Under the pieces are notes generated by a model. The model was not told the DNA's origin and made no database searches. It worked only from the letters and a program-made list of their open reading frames with translations. The translations under genes and the position numbers were made by a program. A stretch of DNA of 64,000 nt from Escherichia phage vB_EcoM-101117BS1, in the sequence record MZ234018.1. One strand, written 5' to 3'. Shown one piece after another: positions 1 to 3,435 of the stretch (position 1 is its first letter; every line of letters begins with the position of its first letter).

Positions 1-392
1 CCGAAACTGTTCTTTGGACTGCAGCACAGGTCGGTAAACAAGCTTGGGACTCTTCCGATGTTAACATGAGCGATATTGCAGAATCTGCTGGTCTTCCAGC
101 AACAGCTGATTTTATGCTTGCGGTCATTGAAACCGAGGAGCTAGCAGCTGCTGAACAACAACTCATTAAGCAAATCAAATCACGATATGGCGATAAGAAT
201 AAGTGGAATAAGTTTTTAATGGGTGTTCAAAAGGGAAATCAGAAATGGGTAGAAATTGAACAAGATTCTACTCCAACTGAAGTGAGTGAAGTAGCAGGTT
301 CACAACAGATTCAGGCTGAACAGAATCGCTATCAAAGAAACGAATCAGCTCGAGCTCAGTTAGATGCTTTGGCAAATGAATTAAAATTTTAG
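1..392 (+). CDS. 41: DNA helicase gp41, C-terminal part (ORF enters from the window edge)
   Basis: Frame open from position 3 to stop at 392; acidic tail ending DALANELKF; lies directly upstream of dmd/61.x/61 as in T4. Confidence 0.7.
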   Translation, partial: ETVLWTAAQVGKQAWDSSDVNMSDIAESAGLPATADFMLAVIETEELAAAEQQLIKQIKSRYGDKNKWNKFLMGVQKGNQKWVEIEQDSTPTEVSEVAGSQQIQAEQNRYQRNESARAQLDALANELKF

Positions 393-450: not shown

Positions 451-633
451 ATGGAATTGGTAAAGGTAGTTTTTATGGGGTGGTTTAAGAATGAAAGCAT
501 GTTTATTAAAGAAATCACAATGATGAAAGATGACGTTCAATGGGCTACTACTCAATATGCTGAAGTTAATAAAGCATTAGTTAAAGCTTTCATTGATGAC
601 AAGAAAGTGTGCGAAGTGGATTGCCGAGGATAA
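451..633 (+). CDS. dmd: Dmd antitoxin (inhibitor of RnlA/LsoA endoribonuclease toxins)
   Basis: 60-aa ORF MELVKVVFMGWFKNESMF...; length and sequence match my recollection of T4 Dmd; GAGGAG RBS. Confidence 0.9.
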   Translation: MELVKVVFMGWFKNESMFIKEITMMKDDVQWATTQYAEVNKALVKAFIDDKKVCEVDCRG

Positions 634-634
634 T

Positions 635-892
635 ATGCATATTGTTTTATTTAAACCTACTCCGTATAACGTCAGGAAAAATACTCAATTCAAAGCACTT
701 ATTGCAGATACGTGGGAATTGGTGTTAGATATTCCAGCAGAAGAAAGTCCTCCATTTGGTCGAGTGGAATTTATTAAGTTTGCTGTACGTCCTACGAAGA
801 GGCAGATTCGTCAGTATAAAAGGTATTTTCGTAAAATCGTTAAGCTAGAGAAACAGTTTGTAACATGTGATTACGCAGAAGTTTTAAAATAG
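635..892 (+). CDS. hypothetical protein at the T4 61.4 position (85 aa, basic C-terminal half)
   Basis: ATG at 635 with GAGGA RBS; ORF-track start 593 overlaps dmd and is probably not used. Confidence 0.6.
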   Translation: MHIVLFKPTPYNVRKNTQFKALIADTWELVLDIPAEESPPFGRVEFIKFAVRPTKRQIRQYKRYFRKIVKLEKQFVTCDYAEVLK

Positions 893-952: not shown

Positions 953-1246
953 ATGAAAAAATTTATTTTTGCTACAATTTTTACTTTGGCTTCTTGTGCT
1001 GCTCAGCCTGCTATGGCAGGATATGATAAAGATTTGTGTGAATGGTCTATGACTGCAGATCAGACTGAAGTTGAAACTCAAATTGAAGCGGATATTATGA
1101 ATATCGTTGAGCGCGATCGTCCTGAAATGAAAGCTGAAGTGCAAAAACAACTTAAGTCTGGTGGTGTAATGCAGTATAATTATGTTCTGTATTGCGATAA
1201 AAACTTTAATAACAAAAATATCGTAACCGAAATCACAGGCGAATAA
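953..1246 (+). CDS. sp: Spackle-like periplasmic superinfection-exclusion protein
   Basis: 97 aa, N-terminal signal peptide MKKFIFATIFTLASCAAQPAMA; GAGGAG RBS; position between 61.4 and 61.2. Confidence 0.8.
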   Translation: MKKFIFATIFTLASCAAQPAMAGYDKDLCEWSMTADQTEVETQIEADIMNIVERDRPEMKAEVQKQLKSGGVMQYNYVLYCDKNFNNKNIVTEITGE

Positions 1247-1247
1247 T

Positions 1248-1880
1248 ATGATTTATTATATGCACAAAAATCCACCGTTTAAATACGGTAAATTTCCTGA
1301 TGCACAATGTTATAATATAACGCCTGATGAAAATAACCGTGGATATCTTATTGGCACAATTTTTGTAATTGTTAAAGATAACGAAATCGTTGCCTGGGCA
1401 GATTTTAAAGGTACAACATATGATGTTAATCCGGTGCCTTTCACATATTACAATTTAATGGATTTGGCATACGATTATAATTGGTTTAATCATGACACTT
1501 TGGCTCATATTGAAGGTGTAGGATTTGATATTTCATATTCGGAATACACTTTAAGCCCTATGAGTCGAGCCCATAAAGAACCTGAATATTTTTCATTTAG
1601 GAAACGTGTAAACTTTAAACGCAGCACAGAGTATGTCGGTGGAATCTTTGTTAAAGATAATCGAATTATTCGTATTAATTATCCTTTGAGCGTTAGTCAA
1701 AAAGATATTGATGTTGATTTAGATTTCACTGAAAATAATATTAATAATATTGCTTCTGTGTATTTTGGTATCGATCACAAAATTGTAATATGTGGATATG
1801 AATTACCGTTTGAAGAACAGCCTAAAGTAAAAGTTTCTATTGACGATCAAATTTTTAATGCTTTTATGAATAAAGGTTAA
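1248..1880 (+). CDS. 61.2-like protein with two internal VKDN-module repeats (possible anti-DarT factor AdfA homolog)
   Basis: 210 aa; two copies of a module containing I/V-F-V-K-DN; C-terminal SIDDQIFNAFMNKG shared with the next ORF; AdfA link is from memory. Confidence 0.65.
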   Translation: MIYYMHKNPPFKYGKFPDAQCYNITPDENNRGYLIGTIFVIVKDNEIVAWADFKGTTYDVNPVPFTYYNLMDLAYDYNWFNHDTLAHIEGVGFDISYSEYTLSPMSRAHKEPEYFSFRKRVNFKRSTEYVGGIFVKDNRIIRINYPLSVSQKDIDVDLDFTENNINNIASVYFGIDHKIVICGYELPFEEQPKVKVSIDDQIFNAFMNKG

Positions 1881-1884
1881 TATG
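1837..1884. repeat. 48-bp direct repeat, copy 1 (3' end of 61.2 plus start of next ORF)
   Basis: ctattgacgatcaaatttttaatgcttttatgaataaaggttaatatg; 45/48 identical to 2195-2242. Confidence 0.9.
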
Positions 1885-2238
1885 TATAGTTCTGAATTTT
1901 CATATTTAAAAATGGAAAAAATTTCATACGATTTTATAGATGAAAAGGTTTATTACAGTTTCCATGAACCGCGTTTTAATAGTGAGGTTGGGTTTATTGT
2001 AGTAAAAGACAATTTCATTTTAAAGATATATTCGGCATTAAAGGATTTTCACTACGAAAATATTAACCTAAAATTTGATAAAGAAAACGTTCGTAATTGT
2101 GCAGTAACAATTACAGGAAATAAAGGTACATGTGTTATGCTATCTGATGAAATTAATGATTTGCTAAATGATGCAGAAAATATTACTGCGCCATCTATTG
2201 ATGACCAAATTTTTAATGCTTTTATGAATAGAGGTTAA
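1882..2238 (+). CDS. 61.1-like protein, single VKDN module, paralog of 61.2
   Basis: 118 aa; GFIVVKDNFIL motif; same C-terminal 14 residues as 61.2. Confidence 0.65.
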   Translation: MYSSEFSYLKMEKISYDFIDEKVYYSFHEPRFNSEVGFIVVKDNFILKIYSALKDFHYENINLKFDKENVRNCAVTITGNKGTCVMLSDEINDLLNDAENITAPSIDDQIFNAFMNRG

Positions 2239-2242
2239 TATG
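2195..2242. repeat. 48-bp direct repeat, copy 2 (3' end of 61.1 plus start of next ORF)
   Basis: Near-identical to 1837-1884; the two copies bracket the 61.1 ORF. Confidence 0.9.
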
Positions 2243-2406: not shown

Positions 2407-3435
2407 ATGTCATCAATACCTTGGATTGATAATGAGTTTGCGTATCGTGCATTGGCTCATTTACCTAAATTCACACAAGTAAATAATAGTTCAACTTTTA
2501 AATTGCGGTTTAGATGTCCTGTTTGTGGAGATTCAAAAACCGACCAGAATAAAGCTCGTGGATGGTATTATGGTGATAATAATGAAGGAAATATTCATTG
2601 TTATAACTGTAATTATCATGCACCAATCGGAATATATTTAAAGGAGTTTGAACCTGATTTATATCGTGAGTATATCTTTGAAATAAGAAAAGAAAAAGGT
2701 AAAAGTCGTCCAGTAGAAAAACCTAAAGAACTTCCTAAGCAACCTGAGAAGAAAATAATTAAATCTCTTCCGTCATGTGTTAGATTAGATAAACTGGCGG
2801 AAGACCATCCAATTATAAAATATGTAAAAGCTCGTTGTATTCCAAAGGATAAATGGAAATATCTTTGGTTTACAACCGAATGGCCTAAATTAGTTAATAG
2901 CATAGCACCGGGAACATACAAAAAGGAAATTTCTGAGCCTCGTCTTGTTATTCCAATTTATAATGCTAATGGAAAAGCTGAGTCTTTTCAAGGACGTGCA
3001 TTAAAGAAAGATGCTCCTCAAAAATATATCACCATTAAAGCTTATCCTGAGGCAACAAAAATTTACGGTGTTGAACGAGTTAAAGATGGTGATGTATATG
3101 TTCTAGAAGGACCTATAGATTCACTTTTTATTGAAAATGGTATAGCTATTACAGGTGGTCAATTAGACCTAGAAGTTGTTCCATTTAAAGATAGACGAGT
3201 GTGGGTTTTAGATAATGAACCTCGTCACCCTGACACTATCAAACGAATGACTAAATTAGTTGATGCTGGAGAAAGGGTTATGTTTTGGGATAAATCTCCC
3301 TGGAAATCAAAAGATGTCAATGATATGATTAGAAAGGAAGGTGCAACCCCTGAACAAATTATGGAATATATGAAAAATAATATTGCCCAGGGGTTGATGG
3401 CTAAAATGCGGCTATCTAAATATGCTAAGATTTAA
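2407..3435 (+). CDS. 61: DNA primase gp61
   Basis: 342 aa; N-terminus MSSIPWIDNEFAYRALAHLP; zinc ribbon CPVCG...CYNC; TOPRIM-like acidic motifs. Confidence 0.95.
   Translation: MSSIPWIDNEFAYRALAHLPKFTQVNNSSTFKLRFRCPVCGDSKTDQNKARGWYYGDNNEGNIHCYNCNYHAPIGIYLKEFEPDLYREYIFEIRKEKGKSRPVEKPKELPKQPEKKIIKSLPSCVRLDKLAEDHPIIKYVKARCIPKDKWKYLWFTTEWPKLVNSIAPGTYKKEISEPRLVIPIYNANGKAESFQGRALKKDAPQKYITIKAYPEATKIYGVERVKDGDVYVLEGPIDSLFIENGIAITGGQLDLEVVPFKDRRVWVLDNEPRHPDTIKRMTKLVDAGERVMFWDKSPWKSKDVNDMIRKEGATPEQIMEYMKNNIAQGLMAKMRLSKYAKI

Follow-up and report, generated by a model that had tools for sequence, protein, structure and literature searches.

The window analysed here is the whole stretch of 64,000 nucleotides from Escherichia phage vB_EcoM-101117BS1 (sequence record MZ234018.1), positions 900-2500 of which match the Tequatrovirus Escherichia phage 303Ecol101PP with 100% identity. 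Between the spackle gene sp and the primase gene 61 it carries, side by side, the gene of anti-DarT factor A (AdfA) and an open reading frame (ORF) for a protein of 118 amino acids (118 aa). Both proteins end in the same short C-terminal peptide, hereafter the tail, and the DNA encoding it is repeated on either side of the 118-aa gene (Table 1). The gene sp is the conserved left anchor of a variable interval, the TATG that contains the adfA start codon directly following its stop, and the small gene 61.1 is the conserved right anchor, after which gene 61 begins. The genes from sp to 61 are tightly packed, with gaps of no more than two bases, and a scan of the interval revealed no terminator-like sites between them.

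A repeat search of the window recovered the tail DNA as one family of 49-nt direct repeats, with two copies that are identical at 46 of 49 positions and lie 358 nt apart, start to start. The coding part reads SIDDQIFNAFMN(K/R)G in both genes and runs on through the stop codon to the ATG of the next gene, with a Shine-Dalgarno-like purine stretch (GAGG or AAGG) placed 5 nt before that ATG. Just upstream of position 1836 the in-register identity is no better than random (10-60% per 10-mer). When DDQIFNAFM was back-translated with degenerate codons, the 64-kb window gave two exact matches and 100 shuffled versions of it gave none; the tail repeat is not a chance feature. Neither copy contained a promoter-like site or a terminator-like hairpin when both were scanned. 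An earlier prediction made from the letters of this DNA alone (the original prediction) had described the same feature one base shorter, as a 48-bp repeat with 45/48 identities (1837-1884 and 2195-2242), and its reading of a shared 14-residue C-terminus followed by the stop, the spacer and the next ATG is borne out by the sequence.

Table 1. Position and basis of assignment of the features discussed, in window coordinates.
Feature	Position	Strand	Basis or content
adfA (T4 gene 61.2), 210 aa	1248-1880	+	Pfam PF23813; phrog_3781
118-aa ORF, variable cassette	1882-2238	+	phrog_4122; C-terminal half of Pfam AdfA model
Tail repeat, copy 1	1836-1884	+	encodes SIDDQIFNAFMNKG, stop TAA, purine-rich AAAGG (Shine-Dalgarno-like), ATG of 118-aa ORF
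Tail repeat, copy 2	2194-2242	+	encodes SIDDQIFNAFMNRG, stop, AGAGG, ATG of 61.1
Module motif FVIVKDN, AdfA N-terminal half	1362-1382	+	read from sequence; predicted beta-hairpin turn
Module motif IFVKDN, AdfA C-terminal half	1644-1661	+	sequence and profile alignments
Module motif IVVKDN, 118-aa protein	1996-2013	+	sequence and profile alignment
Codon AAT, Asn167 of AdfA	1746-1748	+	equivalent to RB69 AdfA residue 164, by alignment to Mosigvirus SF AdfA
61.1 (true), 54 aa	2240-2404	+	T4 annotation; phrog_1823 E 7e-34
Gene 41 (end)	66-392		
dmd, anti-RnlA	451-633	+	Pfam Dmd E 1.5e-45
61.4/tifA, anti-ToxN	635-892	+	Pfam DUF7279 E 3.7e-20
sp (spackle, T4 61.3)	953-1246	+	Pfam T4_Spackle E 5.8e-45; annotated sp in T4, RB14, 303Ecol101PP
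Gene 61, primase	2407-3435		

The longer of the two ORFs matches the Pfam model PF23813 from end to end (profile positions 1-211 of 211; 461.7 bits, where the cutoff is 27; E 3.2e-139), which identifies it as AdfA, the product of T4 gene 61.2. The two names have been equated before (PMC9391042; PMC11257639), AdfA being known from RB69 and from T4 gene 61.2 through the work of LeRoux et al. (2022) as cited in those papers. This identity, put forward tentatively in the original prediction, thus stands. The name 61.1 that the same prediction gave to the neighbouring ORF was rejected: T4 61.1, which encodes 54 aa just upstream of primase gene 61, corresponds to the right anchor of the window, and T4 lacks a counterpart of the 118-aa ORF, having a 358-bp gap in its place, as T6 likewise lacks it. 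The 118-aa ORF falls into phrog_4122 (E 2e-72) and matches a gene of RB14 annotated 'RB32ORF033c, similar to gp61.2'. Against the Pfam AdfA model it scores 31.9 bits (cutoff 27; E 1.1e-7) over profile positions 113-211 only, and the whole protein aligns only to residues ~110-210 of AdfA. After removal of the 14-residue tail, its body still matches AdfA in hmmsearch (E 1e-5 in a single comparison, ~57 columns) and in hhalign (57 columns, 35% identity, P 0.0017), collinear with residues ~110-175. By these alignments the 118-aa ORF is paralogous to the C-terminal half of AdfA, and the likeness extends beyond the tail, as had been proposed.

The proteins appear to be built from a module centred on a KDN motif. 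Two such modules had been predicted in AdfA and one in its neighbour, and the motif is indeed present at all three places; the direct alignment of the AdfA halves with each other, on the other hand, is limited to 11 residues (hhalign P 0.002). With a more inclusive profile of 118-like proteins, 39 columns align to the N-terminal half of AdfA (hhalign P 6.6e-4), spanning the KDN hairpin and a helix of the form (P/D)F-x3-N-h-x-(D/N)-h-A. In AlphaFold2 (AF2) models, a strand-hairpin-strand-helix order is common to the N-terminal half of AdfA, its C-terminal half and the 118-aa protein, and in AdfA it occurs twice and is followed by a tail helix. The description of AdfA as two modules plus a C-terminal tail is therefore moderately supported, and the 118-aa protein, with a single module, departs from this two-module architecture of ~210 aa. 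In Shigella phage CT01 (OK018184.1; L030, 500-1062), a 49-bp frameshifting deletion in the inter-module linker splits adfA into a 72-aa ORF with the N-terminal module and a 101-aa ORF, started from an internal Met, with the C-terminal module and tail; the same gene also has a 15-bp in-frame deletion just upstream of the tail. Such a split may show how single-module genes can arise in nature; alternatively, the gene may be a pseudogene.

The 118-aa ORF is a real gene under purifying selection. Its ratio of nonsynonymous to synonymous substitution rates (dN/dS) is 0.03 against RB14, 0.33 against the divergent allele of an IMG/VR relative (L010) and 0.16 against a Gaprivervirus counterpart, with the ORF full-length and intact in all of these comparisons, and its body was found in 298 phage records, in ~141 of which it is the sole family member. 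These values, together with counterparts at ~36-47% identity in other genera and in metagenomes and a confident AF2 model (mean predicted local distance difference test score, pLDDT, of 82.6), make it extremely unlikely that the ORF is a functionless remnant of a partial adfA duplication in the course of being lost. Such a remnant would explain the patchy distribution of the gene, and it would fit the absence of the ORF from T4 and T6 with no known consequence, the lack of a known phenotype for it, the half-size ORFs of CT01 and the DarTG1 sensitivity of T2 without adfN despite its 118-aa gene (PMC11825919). Between the 118-aa body and adfA, however, no DNA similarity is left, which points to an ancient duplication.

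Comparison of T4-like genomes for presence or absence of the cassette, as the original prediction had suggested, revealed four layouts in Tequatrovirus. Layout a, sp-adfA-118-61.1, is that of the window, CrRp10 and SG1 (157 records, counted as those with the adfA-to-118 junction); layout b, sp-adfA-61.1, is found in T4 and T6 (~180-210 records, a rough estimate from a spread sample and subtraction); layout c, sp-118-61.1, is found in RB14 and T2 (~141 records, obtained by subtracting the 157 with the junction from the 298 with the 118 body); and layout d, sp-61.1, is found in G3F10 (~30 records, the 172 covering the sp-to-61.1 query minus those of layout c). CrRp10 (a) and T4 (b) differ by a single gap of exactly 358 bp, with 96.4% identity elsewhere, and a single gap of exactly 358 bp also separates RB14 (c) from G3F10 (d). 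Neither of the findings that were to refute the original prediction was obtained: all sampled relatives that match the window in gene content have the repeat, and the modules can be aligned beyond the tail. Loss of adfA gives gaps of 615-623 bp with the junction TAAT-TAGAGGTTAATATG, and what is left of the repeat after the sp stop in layouts c and d is its final 14 nt, TAGAGG(T/C)TAATATG.

This 14-nt remnant, present without any upstream tail-bearing gene, could suggest that the element is conserved chiefly as a nucleotide or RNA signal, serving translational coupling or mRNA processing, with the peptide secondary; the last two sense codons of the tail do double as a GAGG-like Shine-Dalgarno sequence 5 nt from the next ATG. 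The translation-start behaviour is nevertheless confined to those 3' 14 nt, the third codon positions differ from genus to genus whereas no family, metagenomic ones included, departs from DDQIFNAFM, and a folding comparison of the two copies found no RNA secondary structure common to both (fold z +1.65, unstructured, versus z -1.74). We consider a primary role as an RNA signal very improbable.

Further evidence that the tails delimit an exchangeable unit came from a segment-by-segment comparison of the window with L010, which also has layout a. The adfA bodies differ at 2/588 positions and the first tails at 1/49; from position 1885, the first base after the ATG, the 118 bodies differ at 55/309 positions (18%); the second tails then differ at 2/49 and 61.1 at 5/162. 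As judged from this pattern, an allelic replacement of the 118 cassette body is what separates the two phages, with the left crossover in tail 1, between 1845 and 1884, and the right limit at tail 2 or close to it. Whether the 118 cassette is lost or replaced, the tail junction remains its boundary. In the same pair of genomes, sp (window 953-1246, L010 3501-3794) differs by 7% and the adjoining adfA body by 0.3%, which suggests a further recombination boundary near the sp/adfA junction (TAATATG).

The tails themselves carry traces of exchange. The tail of T4 and T6 61.2 is identical to the 118 tail (copy 2) at 49/49 nt and 14/14 codons, including the rare AGA, a degree of agreement with P 1e-4 from codon usage alone, and orthologous AdfA tails in Mosigvirus differ from those of Tequatrovirus at 5/49 positions. 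In the three layout-a genomes of the tail table (3/3), the upstream tail ends in NKG (AAA) and the downstream one in NRG (AGA), and in all five layout-b genomes sampled the tail ends in NRG, as expected if a crossover fell within the first three-quarters (5' side) of the repeat. Synonymous variants (GAC-GAT and GAT-GAC) occur in different tail copies in different genomes. Taken together, these sequence patterns indicate exchange between tail copies.

The explanation that best accommodates these observations, and which we hold to be probable although far from certain, is that the interval from sp to 61 houses interchangeable AdfA-module cassettes that recombine through their tail DNA and encode defence binders. 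The interval is, in T-even phages, a slot for interchangeable genes of one small phage-restricted superfamily. Its module would pair a beta-hairpin around (V/I)VKDN with one more strand and a helix whose first residues read (P/D)F-x3-N. All members end in DDQIFNAFM(N/K)R(G/D), with the last codons overlapping a Shine-Dalgarno-like sequence, the stop and the next ATG. In the window a putative two-module AdfA and a one-module paralog stand in tandem, so that their tail DNA forms the 49-bp direct repeat bracketing the paralog. Homologous recombination in tail DNA, be it inside a single genome or between T-even phages infecting the same cell, would then delete, insert or replace cassettes while keeping ORFs and starts intact. 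The 118-aa protein, like AdfA, Dmd and TifA, would act as a stoichiometric binder or inhibitor of a host toxin or defence protein, with a target specificity different from that of AdfA, and the invariant tail would serve a function common to all members, possibly as a shared contact or assembly helix.

Several observations weigh against this explanation, and those that concern recombination also lend themselves to another account, in which the repeat is a passive by-product of a conserved peptide, a strong A+T codon bias and a standard T4 initiation junction, with no special role as a joint; cassettes would be gained and lost by the general microhomology-based or illegitimate recombination of T4, selection keeping the events that preserve ORFs. 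The two copies of the window agree in 11 of 14 tail codons, against 7.7 expected from window codon usage for two independent copies of the same peptide (P(>=11) = 0.05), which is only marginally above what a conserved peptide and codon bias provide, and most of the raw DNA identity of the tails is explained by the conserved peptide and the common translation start. Across genera the peptide is invariant and its codons vary, the tails of Mosigvirus, Dhakavirus and Gaprivervirus differing at 3-8/49 nt. T4 deletions and amplifications arise at 6-10-bp microhomologies anywhere (PMC9391042). Not all events in the slot are tail-mediated: the adfA-deletion junction lies outside the tail, with no microhomology found at its breakpoint, and an allele switch or mosaic boundary between CrRp10 and the window lies inside adfA, at ~1420. 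An adfA deletion mediated by TGAATA was considered and rejected, since the observed TAAT-TAGAGG has 4 nt more than such a product. The exact 358-bp indels could also stem from selection for intact ORFs after imprecise events. Moreover, the prediction that the repeat-bracketed cassette is deleted or duplicated in a copy-number-variable locus is so far supported for the 358-bp presence and absence and by the breakpoint in the upstream copy; no tandem 118 duplicate was identified among the records, two of which have two places for the 118 body. The by-product account nonetheless leaves unexplained why the left breakpoint of the L010 swap falls within tail 1 and divergence returns to flank level after tail 2, why the paralogous tails of Tequatrovirus resemble one another more than the tails of AdfA orthologs from different genera do, why synonymous variants are shuffled between the two copies, and why the indel measures exactly one period not only in two independent contexts but in another genus as well; we judge it unlikely, albeit with an appreciable chance of being right.

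For interchangeable cassettes acting as defence binders, the points of doubt on the side of function are of a different kind. The role of the 118-aa protein as a toxin or defence binder is inferred by analogy. The AF2 model of AdfA has a pLDDT of 66.6, a low to moderate confidence, and the predicted tail helix reaches only ~55-60 in both models. Phage T2 (AP018813.1; L031, 2526-2882, minus strand) carries, directly after sp, a 118-aa paralog 97% identical to that of the window. T2 has been described as naturally lacking an adfA homolog, and without adfN it cannot plaque on DarTG1 cells (PMC11825919); the paralog was thus overlooked, and its presence in a phage that fails on these cells means that the 118-aa protein is not sufficient against that DarT1. 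This insufficiency against E. coli DarTG1 also speaks against a simple anti-DarT1 role. T4 AdfA likewise was not sufficient in the DarTG1 assay with an adfN deletion (PMC11825919).

A single position offers a more specific view of target recognition. In RB69 AdfA, residue 164 sets the binding of DarT1, a protein with Arg not binding and one with His binding, and AdfA(R164H) binds DarT1 in a two-hybrid assay (PMC11257639); the residue is numbered here as the Arg of NINRIAS, counted from the MHKN start of the published primers (PMC11257639). The equivalent residue 167 of the window AdfA is Asn (NINNIAS), that of the RB69-like SF is Arg and that of T4 is His, so that the window protein does not have the allele neutralizing E. 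coli DarT1. The position lies in the module helix, and the 118-aa protein also has Asn there; judged by this alignment, both window proteins would differ from the published binding and non-binding forms in a determinant of DarT binding. Some close relatives of the window AdfA, for example P0007, have His at this site. The first ~57 residues of AdfA fall into two very different allele classes, T4-type (MLYQMHKCKDTYKYKG...) and RB69-type (MIYYMHKNPPFKYGKF...), and the window gene, from a Tequatrovirus, encodes the RB69-type N-terminus (window 1248-1420 compared with T4, L001 947-1120).

A bolder reading, which we put forward as speculative and think rather improbable, assigns the 12-14 residues of the tail to a docking or assembly peptide of a phage-only inhibitor superfamily, with the modules providing specificity. 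AF2 places a flexible linker before the tail peptide and models the peptide itself, with low confidence, as a short helix. The peptide could dock on a surface that DarT-like toxins have in common, or else on a hub of the host or the phage, for instance the sliding clamp at the replication fork where DarT acts. A clamp-binding peptide was considered, and is kept as speculation only: T4 gp43 ends in ASLDFLFG, which bears only a loose resemblance to SIDDQIFNAFMNRG. Since the tail DNA would also serve as the joint for recombination and supply the translation start of the gene that follows, such a docking peptide would make the locus a plug-and-play inhibitor array of T-even phages, in which co-infecting phages of different genera could re-assort cassettes with no ORF broken.

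Beyond Tequatrovirus, an arrangement of the same kind is found in Gaprivervirus. Phages VR25 and VR20 carry a 145-aa tail-bearing gene of the phrog_8539 type followed by a 117-119-aa gene with its own tail and with signatures of the 118-aa protein (EPRFN, GYIIVKDD, KKNVRDCA and ITGN), and in VR26 one gap of 361 bp accounts for the absence of the 118-like gene. Of 86 related records, 30 match a query that spans the two genes over 80% or more of its length. On the evidence of these sequences, Gaprivervirus shows a cassette polymorphism like that of Tequatrovirus. The 145-aa family also carries the tail, its fold gave a weak match (Foldseek E 5e-4), and profile comparison found no significant sequence similarity in its body. 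A sixth tail-bearing family is represented by the 122-aa ORF33 of Dhakavirus C6, whose DNA likeness to Tequatrovirus genes is limited to the tail (97.8% over 46 bp). After the tail, Gaprivervirus has a 73-aa ORF of the DUF7279/TifA family; a 73-aa ORF with a DUF7279 match (E 9e-19) also starts from the tail-junction ATG in Dhakavirus C6 (L006, ~2544-2765), where the record leaves it unannotated, and in a second sequence (L013, 4229-4450). These genera appear to carry a TifA/61.4-family gene downstream of an AdfA-like gene.

The breadth of the superfamily was assessed by an exhaustive scan of 1.84 billion representative proteins with a hidden Markov model (HMM) of the module. Five real clusters were recovered, namely the 118-aa type, AdfA and proteins of 119, 125 and 120 aa, all ending in DDQIFNAFM(N/K)RG and with bodies 30-45% identical or less. 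Word-indexed protein searches returned close relatives only, the other families being seen only with the exhaustive HMM search. Two long hits of the scan (1,658 and 1,921 aa, with 8 stretches each) look compositional and were ignored. No solved structure related to AdfA by sequence was found (best E 0.35), no convincing fold relative emerged, Foldseek against BFVD giving family members only, and NCBIfam gave no matches.

The locus coincides with the 'anti-TA island' of T4, where TA stands for toxin-antitoxin, published as the set of dmd, tifA (61.4) and adfA (61.2) between genes 41 and 61 (Srikant, Guegler and Laub, 2022; PMC9391042). Indeed, Pfam matches to Dmd, DUF7279, Spackle and AdfA follow each other in that order at 451-1880 of the window. 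Other genes of the region have been proposed as candidate anti-toxin factors, and T4 remodels the region in the laboratory by amplifications at 6-10-bp microhomologies around dmd-tifA (PMC9391042). That work dealt with laboratory events in T4, which lacks the 118 cassette, whereas the variation described here is natural and involves another gene and a 49-bp coding repeat of paralogs. As a full-length member directly after sp, the window AdfA agrees with the known protein in position as well; the 118-aa protein has the C-terminal module and the identical tail in common with AdfA, passing the Pfam cutoff on its C-terminal half, and differs in having one module instead of two and a body only ~35% identical to that half. 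In its proposed mode of action, the 118-aa protein would resemble AdfB (ICP1 Gp145) and Dmd (PMC11481870), both by analogy: a small early toxin binder with no enzymatic signature, whose specificity may be set by single residues. It is unlike them in having no sequence or fold relationship to either.

The promoter-early stem-loop (PeSL) cassettes that Arbiol, Comeau and Krisch are said to have described in 2010 reportedly shuffle modules of T4-type genomes. The cassettes of the sp-61 slot would resemble these in that small accessory genes of hyperplastic T4-like regions are swapped as units bounded by short repeats; they reportedly differ in that PeSL cassettes have a promoter and a stem-loop, which are absent from the tails, where the joint consists of the 3' end of the preceding paralog with the Shine-Dalgarno sequence, stop and ATG.

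Earlier work had already described AdfA, the anti-TA island and recombination at short repeats in T4. The half-size paralog family, the invariant tail as junction and joint, the four-state polymorphism and the cassette swap are new, no description of them having been found in the searchable literature, and overall they make a modest addition within the known T4 anti-toxin island. AdfA is among the few characterized anti-DarT factors, and deletion of adfA in T4 has no phenotype; it can now be viewed as one of a small family of one- and two-module proteins that phages exchange within one genomic slot. Candidate inhibitors can be listed by family (the 118-, 119-, 120-, 125- and 145-aa types), and the helix residue equivalent to position 164 is a defined specificity position to vary. 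The record is also corrected for T2, the adfA-less phage of the literature, which carries the half-size paralog. A coding repeat that would be recombination joint and translation start at once helps to explain how accessory genes could move among T-even phages with operons kept intact.

The names in public records call for some care. In the record of PP01 (NC_054930.1) the name '61.2' labels the feature under the 118-aa match, and in that of VR7 (HM563683.1) it belongs to one of four features under the 118-aa match; the public gene name '61.2' is an unreliable guide to which family member a locus holds. As for the right anchor, 61.1 of the window matches phrog_2086 at positions 109-154 of a 156-position profile. 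In Mosigvirus SF (L007, 2906-3373), the 54-aa 61.1 sequence (DMVAGDSGG...GAVVNKGPEQIP) forms the C-terminal part of a 155-aa protein, which fits that match.

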